NCBI RefSeq assembly: GCF_036507355.1
Contig: NZ_AP027877.1
Direction: 5' to 3' (one strand)
Length of the DNA stretch: 64,000 nt
DNA from: Escherichia coli
GTDB lineage: Bacteria > Pseudomonadota > Gammaproteobacteria > Enterobacterales > Enterobacteriaceae
The stretch's first letter is position 1, and the number at the start of each line of letters is the position of its first letter. Under the pieces are notes generated by a model. It was not told where the DNA came from. It ran no database searches and worked only from the letters and a program-made list of their open reading frames with translations. Made by a program: the position numbers and the translations under genes. This document shows, one piece after another, positions 14,131-53,276 of this stretch.

Positions 14131-14178
14131 AATCCCGAATAAGATGTTTACTCTTGCACCCGGCAATTCAACATTTCA

Positions 14179-18559: not shown

Positions 18560-19084
18560 CTACGCCTGCGCCGTTTTACGTAGTGCGACGTAACACGCCC
18601 CGCTGCCGCCATGATGCGGTAGCGCGGTGCAATATGCCTGAACATCATCAAATTCGGTCAGCCAGCGCGCCACATAGCTGCGGACAATATTGGCATGCGA
18701 TTTATCATCCCGCCCTTTACCATGAATAATCAGCACGTTACGCAAACCATCCGCCAGGGCTTGTTGAATAAAACTGAACACCATTTTGCGGCACTCTTCC
18801 ACCGGCTGGCGCAAAAGATTCAGGCTCGCCTGTTGCGGATATTTACCACTGCGCAGCTTATCCAGCACCCCATGTTGCAACCCTTCCCGCCGAAACTCCA
18901 GCGGCTGACTTAGTGGGATGATGTCGAGAAATCCGGTGGTGAGGAAATTATCAAGCTGCAGCGTGTCGATACGCTGCGGCGCACGTTGGTTACGCGTTGG
19001 ATGCCAGTGGACATCGGTAGCACGTTTCAGCGGCTGGACATCTTCCATGGCGTCAAGAAACAGCGATTTGTCGTCAAGGTTCAT
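18560..19084 (-). CDS. smrA: Smr-domain DNA endonuclease SmrA
   Basis: 174-aa ORF MNLDDKSLFLDAMEDVQPL... with Smr domain region (LIIHGKGRDD). Confidence 0.7.
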   Translation of the reverse strand: MNLDDKSLFLDAMEDVQPLKRATDVHWHPTRNQRAPQRIDTLQLDNFLTTGFLDIIPLSQPLEFRREGLQHGVLDKLRSGKYPQQASLNLLRQPVEECRKMVFSFIQQALADGLRNVLIIHGKGRDDKSHANIVRSYVARWLTEFDDVQAYCTALPHHGGSGACYVALRKTAQA

Positions 19085-19278
19085 GTAACCTCCTATGCAC
19101 CTTCACACGTCGTGATTCAGACGGGTTAATTGTTCATACTTACTGCATCGTTCCCTTCACAGATTGAAACAATACTCTACTTCATACCTGTGAGTATCTG
19201 CGCAGGCGGGGCATTTTATACTAGCCTGTTAGCAGTATCGAACAGTTTAGCCCGAGTTTAATTCAGCACAGGCTCCGA

Positions 19279-21820: not shown

Positions 21821-21913
21821 TCTTTACACCGTATATATCCGGAAACTTGCATACGTCATATTTAAAATTTAACATGGCTTATTTGATGATTTCTGACAAA
21901 ATACCTACTGTAA

Positions 21914-22729
21914 ATGACAATTACACTGCAACCCAAAGCATCACCAGGGCATCACATTATCGGACTGGATTCGGAACATCTGAATGGAGGTACAGTTCCC
22001 TGGCATAAACATCTCTATGCCCAGTTGCTTTACCCGGCTGAAGGAGTCGTTCGTGTATGGGCTGGAGAAAGCGTCTGGCTAGTCCATGCCAGCAGCGCGC
22101 TTTGGCTGCCCCCACAAATGCCGCATAAGTTTGTTGCGACAGGCAACGTACTTTTAAAAACCGTACTGGTTTCAGAAGCGGAAAGTGAAACGCTGGGAAC
22201 AGTTTGCTTCATGACGGGTATTTCACCCCTGTTAAGGGAATTACTAATTGCAATTAACCAACTTCCACCGTCGCAAAGTACCACAGATAAACAACAGTTA
22301 CGTTTTTCAGCCCTCGAGACACTGATACTTCAGGAAATAAAAATGGGGGTGAAAATGTCACTTGAACTCCCTTGGCCAAATGATGAGCGGCTACAGCAGC
22401 TTTGTGAGAATTTGCTAAACAACCAAGGGTATCTGCCAACACTGGATAATCTAGCGGATAAAATTAACGTCAGTAGCCGTACACTCATGCGCTTATTTGT
22501 TAAAGAGACGGGATTAACATTTCGCCACTGGGTTCAGCAAATGCACGTTATATCTGCAGTGACGCTTCTTGATGATGGATATTCGTTGACCAAAATTGCC
22601 CATCGTCTGGGCTATGCCTCAGCTGAATCGTTCGGCAATATGTTTAAGCGTCGAACGGGTTACTCGCCCGGTAAATTTACTCGTCGATTAACGATGCATG
22701 ATTATGCAATCACAAGACAAATGATTTAA
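21914..22729 (+). CDS. AraC-family transcriptional regulator
   Basis: 271 aa with cupin-like N-domain and C-terminal double HTH; divergent from the efflux genes. Confidence 0.75.
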   Translation: MTITLQPKASPGHHIIGLDSEHLNGGTVPWHKHLYAQLLYPAEGVVRVWAGESVWLVHASSALWLPPQMPHKFVATGNVLLKTVLVSEAESETLGTVCFMTGISPLLRELLIAINQLPPSQSTTDKQQLRFSALETLILQEIKMGVKMSLELPWPNDERLQQLCENLLNNQGYLPTLDNLADKINVSSRTLMRLFVKETGLTFRHWVQQMHVISAVTLLDDGYSLTKIAHRLGYASAESFGNMFKRRTGYSPGKFTRRLTMHDYAITRQMI

Positions 22730-30319: not shown

Positions 30320-30481
30320 TCAGTATCTCCATACAATCTATTAATCATTTAAATGATAGGTCTAATCATGATTTTGGGTCTAATCAACTTAATGATCAAT
30401 ATCTATAGTGATATCACCAACCGTTGAATCGCCACGGGTTTAACAGACACCTCAGAGTCATTTAAGATGGCTTAAAGAGAG

Positions 30482-30766
30482 GTGCCCATGAGCGGTAAGC
30501 GTTATCCCGAAGAGTTTAAAATTGAAGCAGTCAAACAGGTTGTTGATCGCGGTTATTCTGTTGCCAGCGTTGCAACACGTCTCGATATCACCACCCACAG
30601 CCTTTACGCCTGGATAAAGAAGTACGGTCCGGATTCTTCCGCTAATAAAGAACAGTCAGATGCTCAGGCCGAGATCCGCCGTCTCCAGAAAGAGCTGAAG
30701 CGGGTTACCGACGAACGGGACATATTAAAAAAAGCCGCGGCGTACTTCGCAAAGCTGTCCGACTGA
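30482..30766 (+). CDS. IS3-family transposase OrfA (HTH)
   Basis: 94 aa MPMSGKRYPEEFKIEAVKQVVDRGYSVASVATRL... with leucine-zipper-like C-terminus. Confidence 0.85.
   Translation: MPMSGKRYPEEFKIEAVKQVVDRGYSVASVATRLDITTHSLYAWIKKYGPDSSANKEQSDAQAEIRRLQKELKRVTDERDILKKAAAYFAKLSD
30727..30734 (+). promoter_or_regulatory. putative -1 programmed ribosomal frameshift site (A-run followed by G)
   Basis: ttaaaaaaagcc near the end of orfA, typical position of the IS3-family orfAB slippery site. Confidence 0.5.
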
Positions 30767-30822
30767 GGTACGCCTTTATCCGTGACAACACCTGTTGCTG
30801 GCCTGTTCGCCTGCTCTGTCGG

Positions 30823-31635
30823 GTGCTGGATGTTCATCCCAGTGGTTTTTACGCCTGGCTTCAGCAGCCGCATTCACAACGCCATCAGGCAGACCTGAGG
30901 CTGACAGGGCAGATTAAACAGTTCTGGCTGGAATCGGGATGCGTCTATGGTTATCGCAAAATCCATCTGGATCTGCGGGACAGCGGGCAACAGTGCGGAG
31001 TGAACAGAGTCTGGCGACTGATGAAACGTGTCGGGATAAAGGCTCAGGTCGGATACCGGAGCCCGCGGGCACGTAAAGGCGAGGCCAGTATCGTGTCGCC
31101 CAACAGGCTCCAGCGACAGTTCAATCCGGATGCTCCGGATAAGCGTTGGGTAACGGACATAACCTACATCAGGACCCACGAAGGCTGGCTGTATCTTGCC
31201 GTGGTTGTTGATCTGTTCTCACGCAAAATTATCGGCTGGTCCATGCAATCCCGGATGACAAAGGACATTGTCCTGAACGCACTGCTGATGGCTGTATGGC
31301 GCCGTAATCCCCAAAAACAGGTGCTGGTTCATTCGGATCAGGGCAGTCAGTACACAAGCCATGAGTGGCAGTCGTTCCTGAAATCACACGGCCTGGATGG
31401 CAGCATGAGCCGTCGCGGTAACTGCCATGATAATGCGGTTGCAGAAAGCTTTTTCCAGTTGTTGAAACGCGAACGGATAAAGAAAAAGATCTACGGAACG
31501 CGGGAAGAAGCCCGCAGCGATATTTTTGATTACATCGAAATGTTTTATAACAGTAAGCGTCGGCATGGTTCCAGCGATCAGATGTCACCGACAGAATATG
31601 AAAACCAGTATTATCAACGGCTCGGAAGTGTCTAG
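30823..31635 (+). CDS. IS3-family transposase OrfB (DDE integrase)
   Basis: 270 aa with DDE residues in WVTDITY...HSDQGSQYTS...CHDNAVAESFF context. Confidence 0.85.
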   Translation: MLDVHPSGFYAWLQQPHSQRHQADLRLTGQIKQFWLESGCVYGYRKIHLDLRDSGQQCGVNRVWRLMKRVGIKAQVGYRSPRARKGEASIVSPNRLQRQFNPDAPDKRWVTDITYIRTHEGWLYLAVVVDLFSRKIIGWSMQSRMTKDIVLNALLMAVWRRNPQKQVLVHSDQGSQYTSHEWQSFLKSHGLDGSMSRRGNCHDNAVAESFFQLLKRERIKKKIYGTREEARSDIFDYIEMFYNSKRRHGSSDQMSPTEYENQYYQRLGSV

Positions 31636-31653
31636 ATTATCCGTGGCGATTCA

Positions 31654-31864
31654 TACAATTCTTCGCCCTGCCTGGCTGACGGATGAAGATATTATTGATT
31701 ATGAGCTTACCTCACGCAATGAACCATTCAAAGGTACGATCGTATCACGTAAGAGTGTCGCAGCATTAATTACAGATATCATCGATAAACCTGAGAAACA
31801 CATTGGTGAGAATATAGGCATCAATCAACCCGGGACTGATGGCGATAAGCCATTCTTCATGTAA
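31654..31864 (+). pseudogene. ycjY: C-terminal remnant of an upstream gene truncated by the IS (ycjY-like)
   Basis: open frame continuing from the IS end to a stop at 31864 (…KPFFM); only ~100 bp lies between pgrR and the IS, so the 5' part is missing. Confidence 0.4.
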
Positions 31865-32154
31865 ATCAATTATATAGCCACCATCGTACTGTACTATGTG
31901 CAGTACGATTTATTAAACTTATTAAGGTGAACTGATCAATCAGATGCGATTAACATGTGTAGAACCAGTAAGAATAAAATACGCCATGTATATAACATTA
32001 CGACAATTCTAATATCTGCACATCAATGAAAATACAAACAACTTCCGGCAAAAAGGTGATACAAGATCGATGACATAGCGTTGAAGAAAAGGATTTGATA
32101 ATCCGCAAAATTTGCACAACACTGCCTGTAATACTTCCTGAACCAGAGACGATC

Positions 32155-32857
32155 ATGACCGTAACCCGCCCACGCGCCGAACGCGGCGCATTTCCGCCCG
32201 GAACAGAACATTACGGACGTTCATTATTGGGCGCGCCGTTAATCTGGTTTCCGGCCCCTGCAGCCAGTCGCGAAAGTGGTTTGATTCTGGCTGGCACTCA
32301 CGGTGATGAAAACTCTTCGGTCGTCACGCTCTCCTGTGCTCTGCGGACTTTGACACCTTCTTTGCGCCGCCATCATGTGGTGCTGTGTGTGAATCCTGAC
32401 GGCTGCTAGCTGGGGTTACGGGCCAATGCTAATGGTGTGGATTTAAACAGAAACTTTCCGGCGGCGAACTGGAAGGAAGGTGAAACGGTTTATCGCTGGA
32501 ACAGCGCCGCTGAAGAACGTGATGTCGTTTTACTGACAGGTGGCAAACCTGGCTCCGAACCTGAAACCCAGGCGCTGTGCCAGCTTATACACCGCATTCA
32601 ACCTGCCTGGGTGGTCTCATTCCACGATCCACTGGCCTGTATTGAAGATCCCAGACACAGCGAATTAGGCGAATGGCTGGCTCAGGCGTTTGAATTGCCT
32701 CTGGTAACCAGCGTCGGTTATGAAACGCCTGGCTCTTTCGGCAGTTGGTGTGCAGATCTGAACTTGCATTGCATCACCGCAGAGTTTCCGCCCATCTCCT
32801 CCGACGAAGCCAGCGAAAAATATCTCTTTGCGATGGCAAACTTGCTGCGCTGGCATC

Positions 32858-38791: not shown

Positions 38792-39790
38792 ATGTCCCCT
38801 ACTATTTATGATATTGCCAGGGTTGCAGGCGTATCAAAATCCACCGTATCACGCGTGCTGAATAAGCAAACTAATATCTCCCCGGAAGCGCGCGAAAAAG
38901 TGTTACGGGCCATTGAAGAATTACAGTATCAACCAAACAAGCTGGCCCGCGCGCTGACCTCTTCGGGTTTTGATGCCATTATGGTGATTTCTACCCGTTC
39001 GACCAAAACTACGGCGGGTAATCCGTTTTTCTCAGAAGTTCTACATGCCATCACCGCCAAAGCGGAAGAAGAAGGTTTCGACGTGATATTACAAACGTCG
39101 CACAACCTGGCAGAAGACTTACAAAAATGTGAAAGCAAAATTAAGCAGAAAATGATTAAAGGCATTATTATGCTAAGTTCGCCAGCGGATGAGTCATTTT
39201 TTGCCCAACTTGATAAATACGATATTCCTGTCGTGGTGATTGGCAAAGTTGAAGGTCAATATGCCCATGTTTATTCTGTCGATACCGATAATTTTGGTGA
39301 CAGCATTGCGCTAACCGATGCATTAATTGAGAATGGACATAAAAACATTGCCTGCCTTCATGCACCGCTTGATGTCCATGTTTCAGTGGATCGGGTAAAT
39401 GGTTATAAGCAAAGTCTGTCCGCGCATAATATTGCAGTGCGTGATGAATGGATTGTTGACGGCGGTTATACCCATGAAACAGCACTGCAAGCCGCGAGAG
39501 AATTATTAAGCCAGTCACCGTTGCCTGAGGCGGTGTTTGCCACTGACAGCCTGAAATTAATGAGCATTTATCGTGCGGCAGCAGAGAAAAATATTGCTAT
39601 TCCGCAGCAGTTAGCGGTGGTGGGTTATAGCAATGAAACGCTGTCATTTATTTTAACGCCTGCACCAGGCGGCATCGATGTTCCGACGCAGGAGTTAGGG
39701 CAACAAAGCTGCGAGTTATTATTCCGCTTAATTTCCGGAAAACCGTCGCCACAAAATATTACCGTTGCCACGCATATGACGCTGAAATAA
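38792..39790 (+). CDS. ycjW: LacI-family transcriptional regulator YcjW
   Basis: 332 aa, N-terminal [24 protein letters not shown]. Confidence 0.85.
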
Positions 39791-39814
39791 ATACCAGCTA
39801 CCTTGCCTGAATGC

Positions 39815-39890
39815 CGGATGCGATGCTAGCGCATCTTATCCGGCCTACATTTATAGATCGGATAAAGTACTCGCGCCGCATCCGGCAATT
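39815..39890. repeat. REP elements
   Basis: gccggatgcgatgctagcgcatcttatccggcctac and cgcgccgcatccggcaat palindromic units. Confidence 0.7.
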
Positions 39891-39900
39891 TAGCCCATTA

Positions 39901-40806
39901 TCAGAACGAGTAATTTACGCCGACACCTGCATAATGGAATTTATCACTGTCTCCTTCGTCGTGATCCTGCCACTCAAACGCGTATTCCAGCGAAACGGAA
40001 AGACCATTCTGGAAATCATAACCGTAAAATAAACCCACACGGTTAAAATCATGGCCTTCACGTTCAATATCATCCTGCCAGTCCCAGTTACTCCAGCGAT
40101 CCAGCCCAATGCGCGTATACGGCGTCACCGAGTGGTTGCCGAGCGTCAGCGGCAAATAGGCGCGAATTTCTTGCGTGGAAAACTCACCGTTATTGCGGCT
40201 GTCGTCCATATTGAAGCCGCGCTCGAGATAATAGTTCACTCGCAAAGCAACCGTTTCGTTGAAGGTATATTGCAGACCTGTTTCCGTTTCGACACGGGTA
40301 TCAGCGTAACCGGTCGTGTTCAAATCGTTGGCAAATTTATACATCGACAACCAACCGTTGAAACGTAAATCGTCAGTCAGTTTCACATCCCAATCTGGCG
40401 CGATTTTCCAGCGCTGCATATTCGCCGTGTCTTTACCCGGTTCATCAACGTAGTGATAACCATAATTACGGAAACCGCCGGTCAGGCCGAAACTGAAATC
40501 ATCGCTTTCGAGGAACTGATAATGCACCTCCAGCTCCGGGCGATCAAACCACGTTCCACGTTTACCCGCGCTATAATCTACCGGCCCTTCCTGATAATAG
40601 GCCAAAGAAATTCTCCACGGCCCGTTGGCAGCATTAAAATAGACAGAAGGCTCCGCCAGCCCATTCATATCTTCGCCATAACCCTCGACGTTTTCTATTT
40701 CGTACATCGCGCCGATATTAAAGTGCCAGTCGTTTCTTTCCTCGGCCTGTGCGCAGGCCATTCCCGCACACATCACCAGTGCGGTACAGGGTAATAACTT
40801 TTTCAT
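39901..40806 (-). CDS. ompG: outer membrane porin OmpG
   Basis: 301 aa beta-barrel with signal peptide, C-terminal VNYSF. Confidence 0.9.
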   Translation of the reverse strand: MKKLLPCTALVMCAGMACAQAEERNDWHFNIGAMYEIENVEGYGEDMNGLAEPSVYFNAANGPWRISLAYYQEGPVDYSAGKRGTWFDRPELEVHYQFLESDDFSFGLTGGFRNYGYHYVDEPGKDTANMQRWKIAPDWDVKLTDDLRFNGWLSMYKFANDLNTTGYADTRVETETGLQYTFNETVALRVNYYLERGFNMDDSRNNGEFSTQEIRAYLPLTLGNHSVTPYTRIGLDRWSNWDWQDDIEREGHDFNRVGLFYGYDFQNGLSVSLEYAFEWQDHDEGDSDKFHYAGVGVNYSF

Positions 40807-40850
40807 TATTGTTCCTTGTATTATCCTGGGGGAATGCCTTCCCCCTGTAT

Positions 40851-41933
40851 TTAGCGAATTGCTATTTCCGTTTCTGCATCAAAGAAATGACATTTAGTCA
40901 TATCAAAATGAATAGTGATATTTTCTCCTGCATGATAATCATTTAACGCACCAGCACGGACCACTAACTCGTGCCCCCCAACCGTGGTGTAGAGCATAAA
41001 TTCCGCACCGGTTAATTCTGCCACGCTAATTTTGGCGGAAATGTTATTTTCCTCTTGCGCGTCCGGATGAATATCTTCCGGGCGTATTCCCATCACGATG
41101 GGCTTATGCAAACTTTCCTGTGTTTTCAGAACCGCTAATTTCTCTTCGGGAATGGTTAATTTAAGCGTTTCCGTAACGAATTTATCGCCATCGATCGTGC
41201 CGCGAATAAAATTCATCGCTGGTGAGCCAATAAATCCGGCAACAAACATATTCGCGGGTTGGTTATAAACCGTTTTCGGCGCACCTACTTGTTGAACAAT
41301 CCCGTCTTTCATAATCACAATCCGCGTCGCCATGGTCATCGCTTCGGTCTGATCGTGGGTCACGTAGATCATGGTGGTGTTCAGTTTCTGATGCAGCTTG
41401 CTGATCTCTGCGCGCATTTGTACGCGCAGCTTGGCATCAAGGTTAGAGAGCGGTTCATCCATTAAAAACACGCCCGCTTCGCGCACAATCGCCCGCCCGA
41501 GCGCTACACGCTGGCGTTACCCGCCGGAAAGCGCGCCCGGCTTGCGTTTCAGGTACTCACGCAGGCCGAGAATTTGCGCCGCCCAGTTCACCCGCTCATC
41601 AATCACCTCTTTGGCGATTTTTTGCATCTTCAGGCCAAACGCCATGTTGTCGTAGACCGCCATATGCGGATACAGCGCGTAGTTCTGAAACACCATCGCG
41701 ATATTGCGTGCTTTGGCTGGAACGTCATTCATTCGTTTGCCGTCGATCAACAGATCGCCGCCGCTGATCTCCTCAAGCCCGGCAATCATGCGCAGGGTGG
41801 TCGATTTACCGCAGCCTGACGGACCGACAAACACGATGAACTCTTTATCGGCAATTTCCAGGTTGAAGTCCTTCACCACATGCACCTGGTTATCGTAGAT
41901 TTTTTGAATATGTTGTAACGAAAGCTGAGCCAT
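40851..41933 (-). pseudogene. ycjV: ABC transporter ATP-binding protein YcjV with nonsense codon in the signature motif
   Basis: two ORFs (138 aa + 211 aa); at ~41500 the frame reads LSGG-stop-RQRVALGRAI, i.e. TAA in place of the Q of LSGGQ. Confidence 0.85.
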
Positions 41934-41946
41934 GTTGATTCCTTTG

Positions 41947-44802
41947 CTATACGTTTTGCCAGAAGGCCGATAACCGCGACCAGGTCAGGGAGTCCGTTGA
42001 AGGCAATAGTAATTGCGCCCCGGTTAAGCCCGCGCCGATCCCCACCGAGCGCATACCGCTGGCGTTAATGGCGTCAATGCCCGCCTGCGCATCTTCAATG
42101 CCGATACATGCCTGCGGCGGCACGCCCAGCCCGGCACAAGCAGCGAGAAAGATTTCCGGATCCGGTTTCGAGTTTTTAAGTTGGGAAGCATCCGCGCAGA
42201 AGGTGAAAAACTCGCGCAGCTCCAGCGCCGCTAAAATCGTCGGCGCATTCAGGGAGACGGAAGCCAGCCCTACCGGAATCTGCTGTGCACGGAGCTCTGC
42301 CAGCAAATTGCGAATACCGGGCAGCACAGCATTAACCGTCAGCTCGCGCAGTGAGTGGACGTAGAGCAGATTTTTGCGATACGCCAGTTGCGCCCGCTCC
42401 TGCGAGTTAAAGTCGCCCTCTTTGCCCCCGTATTGCAGAATGCGCCGCAGAGACTCATCGCGGCTAATCCCTTTTAGGGATTCGTTAAACTGCGCATCAA
42501 TGCTGATGCCAATTTCAGCGGCAATCTGCTGCCACGCCTGGAAATGCAGATGCGTGGTAGCGGTCCCATTGAAGGGCAAAATAAAATCAACCAAACAGAA
42601 AACAGATTCTTCAGCCACGGATATAAGCTGCCCGTTCAAACGCAGTGAAACGGGCGCAGAAGTTCGAATCGCAATACGCTGCGCGTCGAGCGTGACCTGT
42701 AATTCGCAGCCCTGCCAGAACAGAGGGAAAGACAACTGTTGCCACTGCTCCGGTAACGCCGGATTGAGATGTAATTCACCGTCACGCACGCTCACCCCGG
42801 CAAAACCCTGAATTGCCCCCAGCCAGATAGCGCCAGTTGCGGCAGCGTGGATACCATCATCACAACTATGCGGATCAGCACCAAGATCGATTTCAGTCCC
42901 CTCGCGCCAGAACTGATAACTTTGGGTCAGCAGGCCACAGCGTGCGGCAACAATGCCGTGGATTGCTTTACTTAATGACGAGTCGTGAATAGTGCGCGGT
43001 TCATAAAATTGCAGATTGGCAAGACACGATACCGCTGAGAACTGCTCCGGCAGCATGTAATTGAGCATCACCACATCAGCTTGTTTGAGGATCTGCATCT
43101 CGTTCACTTCTGCGCGTGAATAATCCAGCAGAATGGTTTGCTTCCCCGCCGCCGCTTTGTATTTAGCCAGATTAATCGCCGGCTTAGCCATAAACGAATC
43201 ATCCTGCGGCAAAACGCCATCGGGCTGCGTTTCTGGCATCCATAGCTCTTTGAGGAACATTTCGGCCCGATGGATAAACGCATCGTCGCTACAGCCGAAC
43301 TGGCGGGCAATATTCAGCGCCTGTTGAACGTTGTAGCGGGCCATATAGCTGGTGTATGCATTATTATTGACATGTTCGGTATATTCGTCTGGTCCAATAA
43401 CATCATGAATTTCCAGACGATCGTTAACTCTCACCGCGCGGCTAATCCAGAACTTTGCCGTCTCCAGAAGTAGCGCCATGCCTTCATGAGCAATGAAACT
43501 TTCATCCCCCGTTGTCTGCCAGTATTGAATAACCGCCCAGGCGATATCGGCGACCAGATGATGTTCCGCCTGCGCCGAGGCCACTTTTTGCCGCAGCCCG
43601 GTGCGAATGTTAATGGCGGCAAATTCCGGCGTCTCTTCTTCGCCGCTGCGCGCGCTTTCCCACGGAAATAGCGCGCCCTGCCAGCCATTGCGTCGCGCTT
43701 TCTCCTGCGCGCCAGGCAAGTTGTGCCAGCAATAACGCAGTAAACTTCGGGCAACCGTCGGATCGCTAAACAGATGAAACGGTAGCAAAAATACTTCTGT
43801 ATCCCAGAAAACGTGGCCTTTGTAGCCTTCGCCGGTTAAGCCTTTTGCCGCAATACTGCTGCGCTCGTCGTGGGCGGGCGTCATGATGCGCAGATGATAA
43901 AGTGCATAATCTAACGCTTGCTGATCGTGCGCATCGCCGCCGTTTACCGTGATACGACGTTTCTGCCACAACTGACGCCAGTTTTCTGTTGATGCTGCAA
44001 GAAGTTGGTCGTAACTCTGCTGCGCACACATTTCAAGCTGGCGAAGCGACGCACTGCCCCACTCGTCTAAAGCAGCTTGCCTGTCATCCCGCCAGTCGAT
44101 CCACACCCGTTTTTGCAACGTCACTGTCTCGCCTGCATGAAGCTGCGCACTGGTATGTTGCAGCAAACGGCGCTCTTTGGCGGTATAGCATTGCTGCACA
44201 TCACCGCTCACCTTACAGCAACAGCTGATGGCCACATCACTGCGTCCATCCTGGGTGGTGTAGATCCCCTGCATCAGATGCTGACCAAACACCCGCACCT
44301 GGGTTTCGTCGAGATGCTGGCGACCGTGGTTGGTTTGCGTGGCGTCGATACCTGTTGAAATCAGCACTGACGCGACGGCGTCCAGTGGCGTAATAGTGAT
44401 TTCCAGCGCAATGAGCGGCAGTTGGTCTGCCGAAACAAAGCGACGGCTGGCGATGGTGTAACCTGCGCCGTTGCTGGTACGCCAGACAACGTTGCGGCGT
44501 AATTCGCCACTGGCAAAGTCAAGCTCACGCTGCCAGGCTTCGTGGGATAACGAGAAAACCTCACCATTTATGGCAATCTCCATCCCCAAGATATCAGGCA
44601 GGTTCACCAGTTCGTTGATTTCACCTTTACCCGCCCGATGATACAGCCCCGCCAGATACATTCCTCGCGTCTGGCGCGTGTAATCTTCTTCATGGCTGGC
44701 GCGAAGCCCAAGATAGCCGTTCCCCTGCGCCATCAGCGATGCATACTTGTTCAGGGTATGCTGGCTGAAATGGGGTTCTGATAACGTTACTGGCCTGGTC
44801 AT
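41947..44802 (-). CDS. ycjT: single 951-aa ORF combining a GH65 kojibiose phosphorylase-like region (YcjT) with a HAD beta-phosphoglucomutase-like region (YcjU)
   Basis: continuous frame; C-terminal ~200 aa ([18 protein letters not shown]...SAFWQNV) is HAD/beta-PGM-like but has no DxDG motif upstream in any frame. Confidence 0.7.
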
Positions 44803-45674
44803 AATTCCACACGCGTCCCTGTTTCTGCGGATTGATATAACGCCGCCACCAGTTGCTGGATGATGTACCCCTGCTCGGCGTCGGCTATCATCACGGGCTT
44901 GCCCTGTACGTGATTGATAAAGGCTTCCATGCTGCGCAAATGGCGGTTGTCGTCTGCCATTTCCCGTTGCATCAGCGTCATTAACTCACCGTTGTTATCG
45001 GTGTAGATATGTGCTGGAAACAGCGTCGCACCGGCTTTATCACCACAAAAGCTGACGTTCATAATCGACTGTTCGCGGATGTTGAGTGCAAATGACGTTT
45101 CCAGCCACAGAATGCCGATGTCGATCAGCGGGCCACCACCCTGCAGTTCTTTATTGGTAAAGACGCCCCAGCCGGGAACGCCGCAGCGACGCAGGGCGCG
45201 GGCGGTGGTAACGTAAATCTCTCCCAAAACGCCGTTGGTCACCTGTTCGCGCAGCTGTTGCGTATCGAGCGCAAAACGATGGTGAAAGTCGTAGGCCAGC
45301 ACCTTGCCCTGTTTGCGCGCGATATCGCACATTTCCCGCGCCTGTTCTGGCGTCATGGCGGGCGGTTTTTCGCACATCACATGGCAGCCCGCTTCCAGTG
45401 CCATCAGGGTATGTTCGTAATGAAAACGGTTAGGTGAGCAGACGCTAACCACATCAGGTTTCACCGCCAGCAGCATGGCCTGCGGATCGTCCCACACGGA
45501 TGCATTACCGTATTTATCTGCCAGCGCCTGCGCCTGGGAAAGGCAGCTGTCACAGACAGCCACCAGTTCCAGATCGTTGCGGGTGCAGTAGTACGAAGCA
45601 TGAACCTTATCCGCCACCTGGCCTGCGCCTATTATCGCGACCCGCAGCGGAGAGCTTGTCATTGCACTTTTCAC
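44799..45674 (-). CDS. ycjS: Gfo/Idh/MocA-family oxidoreductase YcjS
   Basis: 291 aa with N-terminal Rossmann motif [11 protein letters not shown]. Confidence 0.75.
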
Positions 45675-45683
45675 AAAGACCTC

Positions 45684-46472
45684 TTAGCAGGTACGCAACC
45701 AGGCCAACGAATCACGGTACGCCTGGGCAGGATCTTCTGCCCGGATACGCCCTTCATACACCACATAACCCTGATAGTTATCGGCGCGCAGCTGTTCAAA
45801 CAGCGCGTGGAAATCGAGGGTGCCGCTGCCCGGCTGGTAACGATGGTTATCGGCAATATGCACATGACCGAGCAAGTCACGGTTGTCGTGCAGCGCCTGC
45901 GCCAGGTTATCTTCTTCGATGTTCATGTGATAGAAATCGCCGATAATCTGCACATGTTTAAGATTGTTTTCGACGATGTAACGACGAGCATCGGCGAGGG
46001 TGTTGATCATATGATCCTGATAGCGGTTTAACGGTTCGAGATACACCACGGTTCCGGTACGCGCGGCGACCTGTTCCAGTACGCGCAGGGAATCACTCAC
46101 CATTTTGCGGTCGCCGTCCAGGCTACGCGGCGAGGTCATCGGCGGTAAGCGGAAGGTAAACATGCCCCACGCTGCCGGAACGACGATACCTTTACCCCCC
46201 ACTTCTGCCAGCGCTTCGAGAATGCGTTCGATCTGCTTTAATCCATTAAGACGACGCTCTTCGATAAAGTCACCAATCCAGCCGTCATAGCCGCCGCAGG
46301 CGGTGGTCACCGGTAAACCGGTTTCTTTGATCGCCGCTTTGACTTCTTGGATGTTGTTGACCAGCAGTTTGCCGTCAATCTCAAAACCATCGAAGCCCAT
46401 CTCTTTGATATAACGAAATTTCTCGCGGATATTTTCCGGAAAGAATGCCTGATTCTGTGTGCCTATTTTCAT
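45684..46472 (-). CDS. ycjR: sugar phosphate isomerase/epimerase (TIM barrel) YcjR
   Basis: 262 aa xylose isomerase-like fold. Confidence 0.8.
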   Translation of the reverse strand: MKIGTQNQAFFPENIREKFRYIKEMGFDGFEIDGKLLVNNIQEVKAAIKETGLPVTTACGGYDGWIGDFIEERRLNGLKQIERILEALAEVGGKGIVVPAAWGMFTFRLPPMTSPRSLDGDRKMVSDSLRVLEQVAARTGTVVYLEPLNRYQDHMINTLADARRYIVENNLKHVQIIGDFYHMNIEEDNLAQALHDNRDLLGHVHIADNHRYQPGSGTLDFHALFEQLRADNYQGYVVYEGRIRAEDPAQAYRDSLAWLRTC

Positions 46473-46489
46473 TTTTTCATTCCTTTGAA

Positions 46490-47542
46490 TTAAAACGTAA
46501 CGCCCATTTTGATGCTCTGTTCCGGATGCTGATCGACATACTGCATGTAGCTTTCCGGGCTATTGACAAAGGTCACCACCGGGTCGATTAAATCTTCACA
46601 GTTGAGATAACCGTTCATCAGCAGTTCCCAGCAGGTTTCTTCAATACGCTTACGGCTCCAGCGCGGATAATCCGGGTTCGGTTCGCTGCACGCGCGGGAG
46701 AAGACAATTTTGGCGTTATTGAAATGCGCTTCGCGTCCGAGGTTGAAACCTTCGGCAAACGGTTTGGCAAACGCGACATAGGAGATGGTGCCGCCGTAAG
46801 CCAGGCCGCGCAGTGCCGATTGCAGCGCGTCGGCGTAGCCGCTGGTTTCGATAATCACATCGGCACCCTGCTTGCCGGTCAGCGTTTTGATCTCTTTCCC
46901 TACGTCAGTGCCAATGGGGTTAAGGCAGAAATCCGCGCCGTGGCGACGGGCAATATCACAGCGATGGGCGATAGGATCGACGCCAATCACCACCGAAGCG
47001 CCAGCGCGTTTCGCCAGTTGAATGGCAATTTGACCGATCGCGCCAAGCCCTACCACCACGACAAAATCCCCTACGCGCACGTTGGCATCGCGCACGCCGC
47101 TCATGGCAAACTGCGCCGGGTCGTAGCAGACGGCGTTTTTCCAGGAGCTGCCTTCCGGCATTTTGCGCAGCTTGTAGTTATTCACCGCGTTAATGATGAC
47201 CGTTTCGGAAAGCGGACCGTAGCCGCATACGCTGTCACCCACCGCGTAATCGGTAACGTCGCTGCCACATTCGATAATGTCGCCAACCACCATGTTGCCA
47301 AGTTGGAATTTGCCAAACTCAATGCCGCGCGGCGCATCTGCCGGGCGCGGGGTGAACATCTGCCATTCGCCGTTAAAGTCTTCATCAATAAACGGGCTGG
47401 CGGCGCGGAAATCGACCACTTCCGTCCCGTGCTTCGGCGCGCCGAAACGCACGCGGATCTTCACTTCATTGGCTAAAATCGCCCTGTCTTCATACTCAAC
47501 CAGCGCAGCAACACGCGGTGCTGTGGCTACTAACTTTTTCAT
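46490..47542 (-). CDS. ycjQ: zinc-type alcohol dehydrogenase YcjQ
   Basis: 350 aa MDR-family with GLGAIGQ Rossmann motif. Confidence 0.8.
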   Translation of the reverse strand: MKKLVATAPRVAALVEYEDRAILANEVKIRVRFGAPKHGTEVVDFRAASPFIDEDFNGEWQMFTPRPADAPRGIEFGKFQLGNMVVGDIIECGSDVTDYAVGDSVCGYGPLSETVIINAVNNYKLRKMPEGSSWKNAVCYDPAQFAMSGVRDANVRVGDFVVVVGLGAIGQIAIQLAKRAGASVVIGVDPIAHRCDIARRHGADFCLNPIGTDVGKEIKTLTGKQGADVIIETSGYADALQSALRGLAYGGTISYVAFAKPFAEGFNLGREAHFNNAKIVFSRACSEPNPDYPRWSRKRIEETCWELLMNGYLNCEDLIDPVVTFVNSPESYMQYVDQHPEQSIKMGVTF

Positions 47543-47572
47543 GTAAAACTCCTTGTTAAGAAACTGGCCGCT

Positions 47573-48415
47573 TTAGCCCTTCACGCCACCGGCGGTCAAA
47601 CCACTCTTAATAAAACGTTCCGAAAGCGCATACATAATCACTACCGGTAATGCGGTCACCAGCGAGGCCGCCATCATCCGTCCCCAGATGTAATCAGGCG
47701 TACTGAACAGCGCGTTCAGGCCCACCGGTAAGGTGAAATTGCTGGCGCTGGAGAGGAAAATCGACGCAAACAGATAGTCGTTCCACGCCACCATAAAGCA
47801 GTAGACGAAGACGGAGATCAGCCCGGACATCGCCAACGGCACGGTGATACGGAAGATGATTTGCAGACGGTTGAGGCCATCCATCATCGCCGCTTCTTCG
47901 ATCTCATCAGGGATGGTGTCGAAGTAACTTTTCAGCATAAACACGGCGGTGGGCAGAGTTTGCGTCACCATGGTAATGATCAGCGCCATCTCGGTGTCGT
48001 AAATGCCAAGTGCGGTGATAATTTTGAACAGCGGCACCACCAGCAAAATGCCGGAGAACATGTACACCGTGTAAAAGCTGGCGTTGATGGTCATCCGGCC
48101 TTTAAAGCGCAGGCGGGATAGCGCGTAAGCCCCGAGTATGCCGAGAAATACCGCCACCACGGAGGAAACCACCGACACCACCATGCTGTTACGGAAGTAG
48201 TCGACAAACGGGAAAATCATCGGGTTAAAAATGTCGACGTAATGCTCCAGCGTCCACTGCTGTGGCAGCAGCGTAGGATGCAGCGAGATCGCCTCTTTTG
48301 CGCTCTTGAACGAGGTCATCAGCATCACAAAAAACGGAAACAGCGTGATGATGAGAAACAGCGCCAGCCCGCAGTAAAAACCGATACGACTGAGTGTGCG
48401 TTTATTTGTTGCCAT
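47573..48415 (-). CDS. ycjP: ABC sugar transporter permease YcjP
   Basis: 280 aa with 6 TM helices and EAA-type loop. Confidence 0.8.
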   Translation of the reverse strand: MATNKRTLSRIGFYCGLALFLIITLFPFFVMLMTSFKSAKEAISLHPTLLPQQWTLEHYVDIFNPMIFPFVDYFRNSMVVSVVSSVVAVFLGILGAYALSRLRFKGRMTINASFYTVYMFSGILLVVPLFKIITALGIYDTEMALIITMVTQTLPTAVFMLKSYFDTIPDEIEEAAMMDGLNRLQIIFRITVPLAMSGLISVFVYCFMVAWNDYLFASIFLSSASNFTLPVGLNALFSTPDYIWGRMMAASLVTALPVVIMYALSERFIKSGLTAGGVKG

Positions 48416-49283
48416 TGAGGTTCACCCGTTTCCTGGTCAGCAGAATGACAGCGAAAATAATGATGAAGAGCACCACCGAGATCGCCGCCGCTTTCCCTAA
48501 GTCATTAAAGGCAAAGGCGGTTTTGTAGGGATAGACACCAAGAATATCGACCTTGGTTGTCAGCAGATAAACATCAGCGAACATGTAGAACATCCAGATG
48601 GTGCGCAGGGTCACCACCGTCGCCAGGACCGGCATAATCGCGGGCAGCGTGACGATACGAAACCGTTGCCAGGCATTAGCGCCATCCATCTCTGCCGCTT
48701 CGTACAGCGATTTGTCGATGGTCTGCAAAATCGCCAGAAACGAGATAAAGGCATACGGGAAGTAGCGCCAGATGGCGAAGAGCACCACCAGCACAAAACT
48801 ACTGCCCGGATTATCGAACCACAGCGGTGCCTGCTCATAAAGATGCAGAAGATCGACGCCGAGGTAGTTCACAATGCCGTAGCCGTTGTTGAACATGTAT
48901 TTCCAGGCGAACACCAGCGAAATAGACGGCGTTACGTAGGAGAGGATCACCAGCGAACGCGCGGTTTTGCGCAGGCGGAACTCGCGGTTGAAAAACATCG
49001 CCACTGCCAGCCCGAGCACGGTGCTGCCCGCCACCACCAACGCGGTATACCAGACCGTCATCCACAGCGAGTGCCAGAAGCCGGGATCGGAGAGAATACG
49101 CACATAGTTGCTTACCCCAACAAACGTTGACTCGATGTTGGGATTGAGCGGCAGACGTAAAAAACTGATTTCGATATTCGACACCATTGGCCACGCAACC
49201 AGACCGCCCAGCAGTAATAAGCTGGGTGCGAGAAGCAACAGCGCAAAGGGCATATCGGAACGACCTGAAAAAAGCCTGTTCAT
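48402..49283 (-). CDS. ycjO: ABC sugar transporter permease YcjO
   Basis: 293 aa MalF/G-type permease. Confidence 0.8.
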   Translation of the reverse strand: MNRLFSGRSDMPFALLLLAPSLLLLGGLVAWPMVSNIEISFLRLPLNPNIESTFVGVSNYVRILSDPGFWHSLWMTVWYTALVVAGSTVLGLAVAMFFNREFRLRKTARSLVILSYVTPSISLVFAWKYMFNNGYGIVNYLGVDLLHLYEQAPLWFDNPGSSFVLVVLFAIWRYFPYAFISFLAILQTIDKSLYEAAEMDGANAWQRFRIVTLPAIMPVLATVVTLRTIWMFYMFADVYLLTTKVDILGVYPYKTAFAFNDLGKAAAISVVLFIIIFAVILLTRKRVNLNGNK

Positions 49284-49303
49284 TGCGGACTCCTGTCCTG
49301 GGT

Positions 49304-50596
49304 TTAGTGCTGTTCGATCAGTTCATCCAGCTTTTTCTGGCTCGCTTGTAGCGTGGTAGAGAGATCGGCTTTACCCACAGTGACGTTATGCACCATGGAG
49401 CTCACCACCCCAGAACCCGTCACATCGCCCATGCGGGTAAAGTTTTTATCCCCTACTGCGCCAAAGACCTGAATATTCGGCAGTTCACCGATTAACTGAT
49501 TTGGCAGTTCACCCAGCGCCTTAATAACGTCGTTGTCTTTCCAGGTGGCAGTAGTGACAACCGCTTTGTTCACCGGCAGCGCCGCGCCTGGCGACATCAT
49601 CACCCAGTCGGCAATGTTGTCTGCCTGCTCCATAAAGGTGACAAATTTTTCTGCTGCTTCCGTTTCTTCGGTCTTTTGCCCGGCGGTAATGGTCAGCGAG
49701 GTCAACATGCCGTAGACTGCAGCGTTTTTCTCCGTTGGCACGACGAAACCGACGTTTTTCGGGTCGCCTTCTTTAATCACAGCCGGAAGGATATAGGTGG
49801 AGTAAATCGCCATCGGCGCGGTGCCGTTCATAAAGGCGTCTTTCACTTCCATGATGTCGTTAGAACCCGGCATGGTGTTGGCAGCAAGGTCGCGGTAATA
49901 GGTCAGCGCCTGCATCATCTCTGGTGTATCAAGAGTGATTTTGCCTTCGGCGTTAAAGACGTTGGCCTGGTTGGATAACGCAAACTGGGAGAAGGATTGT
50001 TCCGTCAGCACGCTTTCTGCCGTAGGCAGCGCAATACCGTATTTTTTATTCGCCGGGTCATTCAGTTTCTGTGCAACGTCCAGCAGCTGTTGCCAGTTTT
50101 TCGGCTCCTCCAGCCCCGCTTTTGCCAGCACATCTTTGCGATACCAGATGCCGCCAATCCAGGCGCTGACAGGTACACCGGTCCATGCGCTACCATCTTC
50201 GGTACGCACAATACGCAGTACGCCATCGTAAAACGCGCCTTCACCAACGTTGCTGATGACCGTGGCAACCGCTTTGCGATCGATAAGCTGCTCTTTATCC
50301 ATAACTTTGGCGTAGTCATGGCTGGTTTCGATCACTTCCGGCAGCGAGCCGCTACGTGAAAGGGTGATGACTTTAGTGTTATAAGCGTCTTCTTCCACGG
50401 GCACTTGTTTAACGGTGATACCTGGGTTTTCTTTTTCAAAACGGGCAATCAATTTGCTGATAACTGCCTGACGCTCCTGCTCCACCGAAGAATGCATAAA
50501 TTCGATGGATACATGGGTTTTATTTTCTTCTTTACAGCCTGAAATCAGGGCGCAGGAAACCAGTGCTGATAACAGCACGATTTTTGATTTAATCAT
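49304..50596 (-). CDS. ycjN: periplasmic sugar-binding protein YcjN
   Basis: 430 aa with lipoprotein-type signal (LISGC). Confidence 0.8.
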   Translation of the reverse strand: MIKSKIVLLSALVSCALISGCKEENKTHVSIEFMHSSVEQERQAVISKLIARFEKENPGITVKQVPVEEDAYNTKVITLSRSGSLPEVIETSHDYAKVMDKEQLIDRKAVATVISNVGEGAFYDGVLRIVRTEDGSAWTGVPVSAWIGGIWYRKDVLAKAGLEEPKNWQQLLDVAQKLNDPANKKYGIALPTAESVLTEQSFSQFALSNQANVFNAEGKITLDTPEMMQALTYYRDLAANTMPGSNDIMEVKDAFMNGTAPMAIYSTYILPAVIKEGDPKNVGFVVPTEKNAAVYGMLTSLTITAGQKTEETEAAEKFVTFMEQADNIADWVMMSPGAALPVNKAVVTTATWKDNDVIKALGELPNQLIGELPNIQVFGAVGDKNFTRMGDVTGSGVVSSMVHNVTVGKADLSTTLQASQKKLDELIEQH

Positions 50597-50972
50597 GAGA
50601 TGTTCCTTTTTATTTAATCCACATAACCTGCCAGGGGCGCAGCGTTATTTCATTACCCAATATATCAACTTCACTAATCAGATCCCGACCATGCAGATCA
50701 GTAATATTTACATGCTGAATATTTTCACTGACATTAAACAATCCAGTCAGACAATTACCATCAGCGTTACTTCTTTGAATACGCATTACGGATGAATTAA
50801 CCGTATCAATGGTAAAATTATTATCCGGATGAAACTCGTTATGGCTGCGACGAAGTGTAATTAAACGCGACAACTCATGATATACCGCATGCCTTAATGT
50901 AGCTTCATCGTTCAGTTGGTGATGCTGCCAACTTACTGATTTAGTGTATGATGGTGTTTTTGAGGTGCTCCA

Positions 50973-51248
50973 GTGGCTTCTGTTTCTATCAGCTGTCCCT
51001 CCTGTTCAGCTACTGACGGGGTGGTGCGTAACGGCAAAAGCACCGCCGGACATCAGCGCTATCTCTGCTCTCACTGCCGTAAAACATGGCAACTGCAGTT
51101 CACTTACACCGCTTCTCAACCCGGTACGCACCAGAAAATCATTGATATGGCCATGAATGGCGTTGGATGCCGGGCAACAGCCCGCATTATGGGCATTGGC
51201 CTCAACACGATTTTACGTCACTTAAAAAACTCAGGCCGCAGTCGGTAA
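50973..51248 (+). CDS. insA: IS1 InsA
   Basis: identical to the insA at 10432. Confidence 0.9.
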
Positions 51249-51670
51249 CCTCGCGCATACAGCCGGGCAGTGACGTCATCGTCTGCGCGGAAATGGACGA
51301 ACAGTGGGGCTATGTCGGGGCTAAATCGCGCCAGCGCTGGCTGTTTTACGCGTATGACAGGCTCCGGAAGACGGTTGTTGCGCACGTATTCGGTGAACGC
51401 ACGATGGCGACGCTGGGGCGTCTTATGAGCCTGCTGTCACCCTTTGACGTGGTGATATGGATGACGGATGGCTGGCCGCTGTATGAATCCCGCCTGAAGG
51501 GAAAGCTGCACGTAATCAGCAAGCGATATACGCAGCGAATTGAGCGGCATAACCTGAATCTGAGGCAGCACCTGGCACGGCTGGGACGGAAGTCGCTGTC
51601 GTTCTCAAAATCGGTGGAGCTGCATGACAAAGTCATCGGGCATTATCTGAACATAAAACACTATCAATAA
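51167..51670 (+). CDS. insB: IS1 InsB
   Basis: identical to the insB at 10626. Confidence 0.85.
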
Positions 51671-53276
51671 GTTGGAGTCATTACCCGTTCAGTTCTCGTG
51701 TTATCTCTTCACTGTGATATTTTTTACGGTTAATCGCACGGTTATATCCGAGTTTTTCGACACCTGCGTAATCATTACGCGAGCCCAGAATACTTTGAAT
51801 ATATATCGCTGGCACACCGGGGAAACTTAACAAAATCGCATGGGCAAGGATAAACCTGGCGCAACGTTCTTCATCGCTACTCTCGCGGCGGCTTAACGCA
51901 TCCATATAGGTGACATTTATTTCATAGGGACTGCGCGTACCGTCGGGATTATTTTTCCAGTTTACTAATGCACCTTCCTGCTGTAATGCCTCGATCAGCG
52001 CTAATATTTCGCTTTCTGGTAACAAGCCCCGCAGTGGGTTCAGCCCGATGCCATCGTGAGAGGCGAGGAAGTTAAACCAGGTCGTTTTACCGGAGGGCAA
52101 GCTCAGACTTTGCGCCCACTGGCACAGCGCCTCGACGTTCTGTTTTTGCACCGCATGTAACACCAGCGGCGGCAGCGAGAACTGGTACACCATATGCGCT
52201 TCGTCATCGCCTTCGCCAAAGTAAGCAATGTTATCTTTATGCGGAACATTCGTCTCAGTAATAATCACCGTACCTGGCGCGATGTCATCAATAATCGACC
52301 GTAACAGTTTGATAATCAGATGTGTTTTTTCCAGATGGATGCAGCTTGTTCCCGGCTCTTTCCACATAAAGCCAACGGCATCCAGACGGACATATTCTGC
52401 GCCCTTTTCCAGGTAGCACAGCAATACATCCACCATCGCCAGCAACACTTCAGGGCTACGGTAATTGAGGTCAATTTGATCGTCGCTAAAGGTGGTCCAT
52501 AAATGGCGCGTGGAATTATCATCCATTTGAAACGGCGTTAATAGCGGTAACGCACGCGGACGGGTGACGGCACTGAGATCGGTTTTCGGATCAACCGCAA
52601 TAAAGAAATCTTTAAAACCCGGAAGCTGTTGCAAATAGTTTTTAAACCATTCACTTTTTGCCGACATATGGTTGCAGACAAAATCAAACATTAAATGACT
52701 GCATTCACCGAGCTGCTGAATATCCTGCCACTCCCCCGCTTCACTGGCGACCTGATGATAATCAATTACCGAAAATCCATCATCAGATGACCATGGATAA
52801 AAAGGTAATAAATGAACATGTGAAAAAATGCTTTGCAGCCATTGGTGGTAAAACTGATTAAATGTGGGTAGTGGTTTTAAATCATTACTGTGAAATTGAT
52901 CGGCATAGGTAATTAACACGACGTCACTTTCATCCCAGTGTTTTTTACGTCGCTGTGTAATTAATCGTTTCGCACTCTCAAGACGCGTTACAAGTTTCTG
53001 TAAATGAGTTGCGGTAAATGTTCCACCGTAGATTTCGCCCAGGTAATCCGTAATTTTCTGTTTCATGTTGCCTTTCCGTGGTAGCGGTCCCATGAAACGA
53101 GAGACTACTCCGCAGAAAATAAACTGTCAATTGAGCACAAGGGTTTTAGTCACGCAGGAAATCATTTTTTACCAGGGAAAAAGCGTATTTGTGAGCTGAC
53201 GCAAATAATCTATAGGGATGTAAATAAGGTGTGACAGAAAAAAACGGCGCATAAGCGCCGCTCATGGTGAATTCTT

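Follow-up and report, generated by a model that had tools for sequence, protein, structure and literature searches.

A recent IS1 insertion in ycjM follows three older lesions in the ycj operon of an Escherichia coli clone

In a stretch of 64,000 nucleotides from the E. coli contig NZ_AP027877.1 (RefSeq assembly GCF_036507355.1; hereafter the window), the ycjMNOPQRSTUV-ompG operon is interrupted in its first gene by a copy of IS1, and several of the genes downstream carry lesions of their own. This arrangement raises the question of whether the insertion disabled a working sugar pathway or entered one that had already been lost, and whether the accumulated damage reflects relaxed selection on this pathway in particular. 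An initial sequence-only reading had described three lesions, the IS1 in ycjM, a nonsense codon in ycjV and a fusion of ycjT to ycjU, in an operon whose transporter and redox genes (ycjN to ycjS) looked intact, and had proposed that the insertion completed the decay of a pathway under relaxed selection.

The element is a canonical IS1 of 768 bp (50918-51685, plus strand), located exactly where it had been placed before. It is identical to IS1A of K-12 at 765 of 768 positions, differing at the remaining 3, and is bordered on both sides by a perfect 9-bp direct repeat, CGTTCAGTT (left copy, 50909-50917; right copy, 51686-51694), a sequence that occurs as a single copy in relatives. On K-12 ycjM, the two flanks of the element overlap by 9 bp, a hallmark of target-site duplication; the junction sequence within ycjM reads TTCATCGTTCAGTTGGTGATGCTGCC. 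The terminal inverted repeats on the left (IRL, 50918-50940) and right (IRR, 51663-51685), each comprising 23 nt and given here on the plus strand, are imperfect, with arms that are 78% complementary, and a promoter-like consensus match (50925-50952) overlaps IRL. The same strand carries insA (50973-51248; 91 aa), whose product combines a zinc ribbon with an HTH_Tnp_IS1 domain (PF03811, PF12759), and the insB' frame (51167-51670; 167 aa), which contains a complete DDE_Tnp_IS1 domain (PF03400, profile positions 1-131 of 131). At the insA/insB' junction, we located the A6C slippery site AAAAAAC (51224-51230, plus strand), the motif known in IS1 for the -1 programmed frameshift that joins insA to insB'. 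Its length, ends, open reading frames, target duplication and near-identity to a known copy all identify the element as a member of the IS1 family (IS1A/IS1B type). A second copy situated ~40 kb away in the window (10377-11144) is 100% identical to the one in ycjM, each of the two has its own target duplication, and the copy in ycjM is apparently active. The perfect 9-bp duplication, the completeness of the element and the empty site in relatives together establish a real transposition event and exclude a chance resemblance, so that the splitting of ycjM by an IS1 with a 9-bp duplication is confirmed.

The interrupted gene lies on the minus strand and is cut after codon 460 of 559. Its 5' part (51686-53066, codons 1-460) is predicted to give rise to a protein of 461 residues, composed of 460 native residues and a glycine, with a TAA stop codon (51681-51683) contributed by IRR, and its 3' part (50610-50917, minus strand), comprising the last ~99 codons and the native stop codon, has neither a promoter nor a start codon. 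Excision of the IS1 in silico restores an uninterrupted 559-aa open reading frame that is ~96% identical to K-12 YcjM and corresponds to the syntenic orthologue of b1309, positioned between pspE and ycjN. The earlier assignment of this gene to the sucrose-phosphorylase family is borne out by a match to the alpha-amylase catalytic domain (PF00128, residues 83-310) and by the similarity of the K-12 orthologue to the solved sucrose/glucosylglycerol phosphorylases 7qqi, 7qqj, 1r7a and 7xdq (E-values of 1e-42 to 1e-57). YcjM is probably a glucosylglycerate phosphorylase of the GH13 class within this family, an activity name adopted from the K-12 RefSeq annotation and from earlier publications (for summaries, see PMC6599011 and PMC11543891). 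Its PF00128 match falls wholly within the retained part. However, in alignments with the solved family members, the ~99 residues that are lost correspond to the final stretch of the catalytic domain plus the C-terminal region, suggesting that the truncated protein is inactive. Exact-product look-ups with the 461-aa and 470-aa versions of truncated YcjM found no record, and searching the literature for an IS1 within ycjM brought up only unrelated laboratory-evolution tables.

The operon contains four rather than three lesions, since ycjS is damaged as well. This gene (44799-45674, minus strand) has undergone a 180-bp in-frame deletion that removes amino acids 187-246 and shortens its product from 351 to 291 aa, with a junction (~45100-45117) between the imperfect direct repeats CGGCATTC. 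The 60 missing residues include GIHMLD and the conserved active-site histidine of the DIGxH motif, and the Pfam domain GFO_IDH_MocA_C is matched only at profile positions 97-218, as compared with 1-218 in K-12. The solved homologue DgpA conserves a YcjS block of 14 residues. From the loss of this motif, we infer that YcjS activity has been abolished. The ycjT-ycjU fusion (41947-44802, minus strand) is real, forming an in-frame open reading frame of 951 aa, but the 68-bp deletion that created it (junction at 42555-42564) did more than join two genes: it eliminated the C-terminal residues of YcjT after position 750 and residues 1-18 of YcjU. The missing YcjU segment contains HAD motif I (FDLDG) with the catalytic DxD, MKLQGVIFDLDGVITDTA being absent from the fusion, so that the phosphoglucomutase domain should be dead and the beta-phosphoglucomutase activity of the protein lost. 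In line with this deletion, the HAD profile match in the fusion begins at position 12 instead of 1-3, and solved beta-phosphoglucomutases share the conserved FDLDGVITDT block. An exact-product look-up with the 928-aa annotated version of the fusion found no record, and 60-bp queries spanning the ycjS and ycjT-ycjU deletion junctions had 0 matches in 5426 complete E. coli genomes. The nonsense codon in ycjV (40851-41933, minus strand) likewise proved real. It arises from a CAA-to-TAA change at codon 139 (Q139*; 41517-41519), which encodes the glutamine of the LSGGQ motif, and is the only nonsense codon in the gene; the frameshift at codon 319 known from K-12 ycjV is not present. Because ycjV encodes the ATPase of the ABC transporter, the transporter is not intact either, in contrast to the previous description.

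The supposed integrity of ycjN to ycjS thus extends only as far as ycjR. The genes for the substrate-binding lipoprotein YcjN (49304-50596; 430 aa), the permeases YcjO (48402-49283; 293 aa) and YcjP (47573-48415; 280 aa), the dehydrogenase YcjQ (46490-47542; 350 aa) and the epimerase YcjR (45684-46472; 262 aa) are all full length, as is ompG at the end of the operon (39901-40806; 301 aa), each on the minus strand. The same is true of ycjW (38792-39790, plus strand; 332 aa), which encodes the LacI-type repressor of the operon. Two YcjW ChIP sites, the operon structure and repression by YcjW have been reported previously (PMC6599011). In the window, a candidate operator O1 with the sequence TGGGACCGCTACCA is intact upstream of ycjM (53079-53092, minus strand), and a second one, O2, with the same sequence, is retained (42555-42568, minus strand). 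The 68-bp deletion between ycjT and ycjU begins at the 3' edge of O2, and loss of an operator through this deletion is ruled out by the presence of both copies. The IS1 end facing ycjN shows no outward promoter-like site on the relevant strand, which speaks against an IS1-borne promoter re-driving ycjN-ompG. IS1 is known to exert polarity on downstream genes. Transcription of the genes behind ycjM should thus be reduced by the insertion. The sequence-only reading had left the polarity of an IS1 in an operon's first gene out of account.

The order of these events can be read from five public samples of the same clone (assemblies GCA_905398585.1, GCA_021425525.1 and GCA_047852605.1 and runs SRR32181686 and SRR31122001), which differ from the window by 2-5 SNPs per 16-22 kb, all of them outside ycjM. 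The ycjS, ycjT-ycjU and ycjV lesions recur identically in all five, which shows that they are not sequencing errors and answers the earlier concern that they might be absent from further sequence data. By contrast, the IS1 site is empty in every one of these samples, the close relatives having one copy of the target site (AACTGAACG on the ycjM strand), and window ycjM without its IS1 is identical to their uninterrupted sequence over the compared stretch. The IS1 is therefore the newest lesion, and the notion that it completes the decay is a fair one. The insertion is carried by the window only, with no independent assembly containing it. A comparison against all complete E. coli genomes ruled out that the ycj allele is unusually diverged as a result of its decay, because the intact puu-psp flank is equally distant (98.2% vs 97.9%).

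We consider it likely that the IS1 represents a neutral and very recent addition to an operon that was already non-functional and no longer maintained in this clone. This rare E. coli clone with several IS copies had experienced a slippage-type deletion that deprived YcjS of its DIGxH histidine, a deletion that joined ycjT to ycjU at the expense of the DxD nucleophile motif, and a C-to-T change that placed a stop codon in the LSGGQ motif of YcjV. Only then did the IS1 enter ycjM, generating its target duplication, truncating YcjM and presumably dampening the expression of the downstream genes.

The fact that one functional unit has been hit by several independent inactivating lesions (the IS1 in ycjM, the deletions in ycjS and ycjT-ycjU and the nonsense codon in ycjV) speaks for relaxed selection on the pathway. 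Within the window, 5 of 10 ycj genes are damaged, as opposed to 2 of the 32 other K-12 orthologues (Fisher p=0.005); this enrichment weakens to a p of about 0.07 in a rough event-based estimate that also counts an MFS frameshift and the loss of ycjY, and covers these 64 kb only. The damaged genes show no lineage-specific rise in dN/dS, with nonsynonymous/synonymous counts of 17/41 in the window lineage and 55/127 in K-12 and O55:H7 (odds ratio 0.96, p=1.0, a contrast of low power given the few substitutions). The pairwise ycjM value against O55:H7 was left out, since the O55 frameshift makes it invalid. The substitutions thus give no lineage-specific sign of relaxed constraint. Relaxed selection on the ycj pathway, as originally proposed, is plausible, but the evidence that it acted on this pathway specifically is only moderate, given the other pseudogenes in the window and the lack of a nonsynonymous excess.

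It is a serious possibility, if short of an even chance, that the pattern has little to do with this pathway and that ycj simply took its share of a genome-wide decay driven by IS expansion and drift. The window contains four IS copies, the two identical IS1 elements and two of the IS3 family, together with nonsense codons in mpaA (Q85*) and smrA (K175*), a frameshifted DHA2-MFS gene and the loss of ymjC-ycjY beside an IS, so that much of the pattern could indeed be genome-wide. The small chromosome on record for the lineage (4.64 Mb) and the unremarkable substitution counts of the ycj genes are consistent with this view, whereas the gene-wise contrast reported above and the density of damage, with four lesions in ~12 kb compared to roughly four over the remaining ~45 kb of backbone, argue against it. 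The two readings are not mutually exclusive, because the loss of one step would render the rest of a pathway neutral, such that a clustering of lesions is to be expected.

A separate issue is whether the insertion arose in nature or during the storage or culture of the sequenced isolate in the laboratory. Movement of IS1 during culture storage is a known phenomenon, and the absence of the insertion from all five related samples, the perfect identity of the element to the copy 40 kb away and the lack of accumulated change in the split ycjM would all agree with such an origin. However, nothing sets these features apart from those of a recent natural transposition, and we regard a laboratory origin as unlikely. 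In either case, the biology is read in the same way, as a neutral insertion into an operon that was already dead.

Damage to ycj is also seen elsewhere in the species. K-12 has a 1-bp frameshift at codon 319 of ycjV (ymjB) and O55:H7 a 1-bp frameshift in ycjM; in DP051, an IS1 end lies ~26 bp from the site used here and ycjN-ompG is deleted; in 2017.11.01CC, which carries two IS1 copies, ycjM is broken into three pieces, of which the middle one is inverted. Moreover, truncated YcjS-like proteins from S. flexneri appear in the protein cluster, and 407 of 5426 complete E. coli genomes have no match to the ycj cluster. The independent inactivations in other lineages indicate that the species as a whole can dispense with the cluster. 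They could also be taken to mean that its loss is positively selected, with OmpG, the transporter or an enzymatic side activity being costly and the IS1, inserted in the first gene, where its polar effect is greatest, serving to shut down the operon. However, the operon is tightly repressed by YcjW, and with ycjW and both candidate operators intact, the cost of this silent operon should be small. Furthermore, the three lesions that preceded the IS1 struck enzymes singly, unlike a selected shut-off, and an IS1 end close to this part of ycjM is present in just 11 of 5426 genomes, a number that does not exceed a rough random expectation based on ~76,000 IS1 ends and leaves the idea of an IS1 hotspot unsupported. 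Both a selected loss in this clone and the broader proposal that the recurrent inactivation of ycj in E. coli and Shigella reflects an advantage of losing it in some host niches, with the four-hit decay as a case of convergent selected loss, consequently appear improbable. It is barely credible that a functional enzyme is still made from the split ycjM, whether by the 461-residue fragment alone or by both fragments together, because the intact PF00128 match is offset by the missing end of the catalytic domain and C-terminal region and by a 3' fragment that lacks its own start codon and promoter and is faced by no promoter-like site.

The preferred reading, a neutral insertion into a defunct operon, finds close parallels in known systems. 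Classic IS1 insertions with polarity are known from the E. coli gal and lac operons. The present case shares with them an IS1A-like element, a 9-bp duplication, insA/insB' with the A6C site and a location within the first structural gene of a polycistronic operon, but differs in that the downstream ycj genes are already partly dead, so that the expected polarity would probably have little phenotypic consequence. In Shigella and enteroinvasive E. coli, sugar-catabolic operons undergoing reductive evolution similarly combine IS elements, small deletions and nonsense codons in one dispensable pathway, in a neighbourhood with several IS copies and other pseudogenes, although the lineage studied here is labelled E. 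coli in public records and its genome-wide decay would be extrapolated from one 64-kb window. As in the K-12 ycjV and O55:H7 ycjM pseudogenes, lineage-specific lesions have inactivated the ycj operon of an otherwise ordinary E. coli, but the lesions are independent, and those strains have a 1-bp frameshift each, as opposed to four lesions in one operon. In DP051, an IS1 with the same orientation in this part of ycjM removed everything from ycjM codon ~468 through ompG, whereas the window shows a simple insertion with its duplication intact.

Collectively, these findings describe a routine case of ordinary gene decay rather than a new mechanism, with little significance beyond annotation and no new question opened. 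In this genome, ycjM, ycjS, ycjU and ycjV should be marked as pseudogenes, and it would be wrong to read the 951-aa ycjT-ycjU product as a bifunctional enzyme. With and without its IS1, the clone would form a natural isogenic pair for studying IS1 polarity. K-12 has been reported to be unable to grow when kojibiose is the only source of carbon (PMC6599011), which fits with the ycj cluster being dispensable. With three older lesions followed by an IS1, the operon offers a well-ordered example of the decay of this dispensable and repeatedly lost glucoside/kojibiose/glucosylglycerate cluster.

The window is colinear with E. coli K-12 (NC_000913.3) in reversed orientation, running from puuA through the psp operon, the ycj cluster and tyrR to the Rac prophage. 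Within this cluster, a 768-bp IS1 element (50918-51685), which starts with GGTGATGCTGCCAACTTACTGAT and finishes with AAGTTGGAGTCATTACC, is bordered by the direct repeat CGTTCAGTT (50909-50917 and 51686-51694), the sole perfect 9-bp repeat of this kind in the region. Its 23-nt ends form imperfect inverted repeats, and it encodes a 91-residue InsA protein, in which a Zn-ribbon is combined with HTH_Tnp_IS1, as well as an overlapping frame of 167 residues with a full DDE_Tnp_IS1 domain, joined to insA via AAAAAAC at 51224. Three of its 768 positions differ from K-12 IS1A. Both flanks map to K-12 ycjM (b1309; annotation: glucosylglycerate phosphorylase), where their K-12 coordinates overlap by 9 bp, and in silico removal of IS1 and one repeat copy regains a 559-codon ycjM reading frame that is ~96% identical to K-12 YcjM. 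These features confirm the sequence-only reading of an IS1 insertion with a 9-bp duplication (50909-51694) and show that YcjM is truncated by IS1 transposition. The gene, which lies antiparallel to those of IS1, is broken after codon 460, with the 5' product predicted to finish ...TRELN-G-stop, its stop codon provided by the IS1 end. Alignment to solved sucrose and glucosylglycerol phosphorylases places the ~99 lost residues in the C-terminal region and the final part of the catalytic domain. A second IS1 copy, 100% identical to the first, lies within the Rac prophage toxin gene ralR (10377-11144) and has its own 9-bp duplication, GACAATGTT (10368-10376 and 11145-11153).

IS1 is not the only lesion of the cluster, and the sequence-only reading, which counted three, missed one of four. 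As that reading had proposed, ycjV carries a single nonsense codon (CAA to TAA, codon 139, 41517-41519) where the LSGGQ signature would have its Gln. The K-12 frameshift at codon 319 is not present in this ycjV gene, indicating that ycjV was inactivated independently in the two lineages. The proposed ycjT-ycjU fusion was also borne out, with a 68-bp deletion (junction 42555-42564) joining the two genes in frame into a 951-residue reading frame. The fusion lacks the YcjT residues beyond position 750 and also residues 1-18 of YcjU (MKLQGVIFDLDGVITDTA), including the FDLDG block conserved in all solved beta-phosphoglucomutases of our alignment. This block is HAD motif I, which in this superfamily carries the Asp nucleophile. 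Within the fusion, the HAD profile is matched only from position 12 instead of 1-3, whereas YcjT keeps its GH65 domains in full, which argues for a kojibiose phosphorylase with a predicted dead mutase domain rather than a bifunctional enzyme. Two imperfect repeats, CGCTACCA and CGATACCG, flank the 68-bp deletion.

The lesion that had been overlooked affects ycjS. While ycjN, ycjO, ycjP, ycjQ and ycjR are full length, as previously suggested for the whole ycjN-ycjS segment, ycjS has lost 180 bp in frame (junction 45100-45117) from between imperfect repeats (CGGCATTC...), leaving 291 of 351 residues (187-246 gone). The junction changes a 14-letter protein block and removes the His of the conserved DIGxH motif, which is also present in DgpA, the nearest homologue with a solved structure; the C-terminal domain profile is reduced by about half.

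The order of these events can be read from relatives of the strain. Exact-protein look-up identified five other public samples (GCA_905398585.1, GCA_021425525.1, GCA_047852605.1 and runs SRR32181686 and SRR31122001) whose contigs encode the 291-residue YcjS, the 951-residue fusion and a split YcjV together with an unbroken 559-residue YcjM. The three older lesions are thus real and fixed in the clone. At the three loci open to nucleotide-level comparison, 2-5 substitutions per 16-22 kb separate the relatives from the window, all of them outside ycjM, and the IS1 target site is empty. IS1 insertion is therefore the latest event, with ycjM unaltered since. Before it, YcjS and YcjU had already lost their catalytic motifs and YcjV its ATPase signature, probably along with the matching activities. 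Public records label these proteins as E. coli, and they include a 4,643,937-bp chromosome with VEE46_ locus tags. Neither the ycjS nor the ycjT-ycjU deletion junction has a match in 5426 complete RefSeq E. coli genomes, among which identity to the ycj cluster reaches at most 97.9%, and to the intact puu-psp flank at most 98.2%. The lineage is a rare one whose ycj region has diverged to no greater extent than the adjacent DNA.

Relaxed selection on the pathway, as originally proposed, is only partly upheld. Four independent lesions fall within ~12 kb, and damage affects 5 of 10 ycj structural genes versus 2 of the 32 other K-12 orthologues of the window (Fisher p=0.005). However, the window contains further lesions (mpaA Q85*, smrA K175*, a 1-bp deletion in a DHA2-MFS gene and an IS-associated ymjC-ycjY loss, besides four IS copies in all), and the enrichment becomes marginal once events are counted with these included (~p=0.07, our own estimate). 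Moreover, substitutions polarised with K-12 and O55:H7 revealed no lineage-specific nonsynonymous excess in the damaged genes (17 nonsynonymous/41 synonymous versus 55/127 in the other two lineages; odds ratio 0.96). The enzyme genes ycjM, S, T, U and V are under less constraint than ycjQ, ycjR and the transporter genes in each of the three lineages, with nonsynonymous/synonymous ratios several-fold above those of the transporter genes, which suggests that constraint is weak species-wide rather than in this lineage alone. Synonymous divergence is strongly mosaic across 38792-53093 (compared with the K-12 and O55:H7 loci), with dS versus K-12 at ~0.2 for ycjM, N, Q, R and W and 0.03-0.07 for ycjS and T.

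Consistent with weak constraint, the cluster has been inactivated separately elsewhere. In addition to the K-12 ycjV frameshift, O55:H7 RM12579 has a ycjM gene annotated as frameshifted (1679 bp; locus L013, 13559-15237) in an otherwise intact cluster, an independent inactivation of the same gene. DP051 carries IS1 ~26 bp from the insertion site described here and has lost ycjN-ompG, and in 2017.11.01CC two IS1 copies have divided ycjM into three pieces, of which the central one is inverted. Truncated YcjS-like proteins of S. flexneri belong to the same protein cluster, and no ycj cluster match was found in 407 of the 5426 complete E. coli genomes. K-12 itself reportedly does not grow when kojibiose is the only carbon source (PMC6599011).

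Several lesions outside the cluster can be described further. The mpaA gene (murein tripeptide amidase; plus strand) is interrupted by CAG to TAG at 32407-32409, and its gene calls are also split (148 + 84 residues) in a related assembly; in smrA (minus strand), AAG to TAG at 18560-18562 removes the last 13 residues. Genes for an AraC regulator, an HlyD-type adaptor and the DHA2-MFS efflux protein replace the K-12 abgRABT operon (19094-22694), as in 1457 of 5426 E. coli genomes, the 1-bp deletion relative to other genomes leaving two reading frames (19279-19989 and 19938-20792). A 1.6-kb segment with an IS3-family transposase (30431-32025; 270 residues, 30823-31635) takes the place of K-12 ymjC-ymjD-ycjY. 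Another IS3-family element (~6863-8119, minus strand; orfA 7756-8064, orfB 6893-7759) sits at an internal Rac deletion joint, where the segment equivalent to K-12 1416166-1423516 has been lost and recE is truncated at residue 408; the remaining Rac DNA is 99.9% identical to K-12.

The regulatory framework of the cluster persists. Like ycjN-ycjR, ompG and ycjW are full length, each of these genes showing 1-6 amino-acid differences from K-12. The candidate YcjW operator TGGGACCGCTACCA, a 14-bp near-palindrome, occurs exactly twice, at the end of ycjT (42555-42568) and upstream of ycjM (53079-53092), with both copies retained (the K-12 comparison locus has its two at 4191-4204 and 14119-14132); the ycjT-ycjU deletion starts directly at the 3' edge of the ycjT copy. 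IS1 is classically polar, and no outward promoter-like site facing ycjN was found at the element. The positions of both candidate operators match the two reported YcjW ChIP peaks, and the operon that YcjW represses starts with ycjM (PMC6599011). Given this gene order, transcription of ycjN-ompG may be lowered by polarity of the insertion. The insertion itself was probably selectively neutral and adds one more case to a well-known process, in which an IS element inserts into a decaying, dispensable operon.
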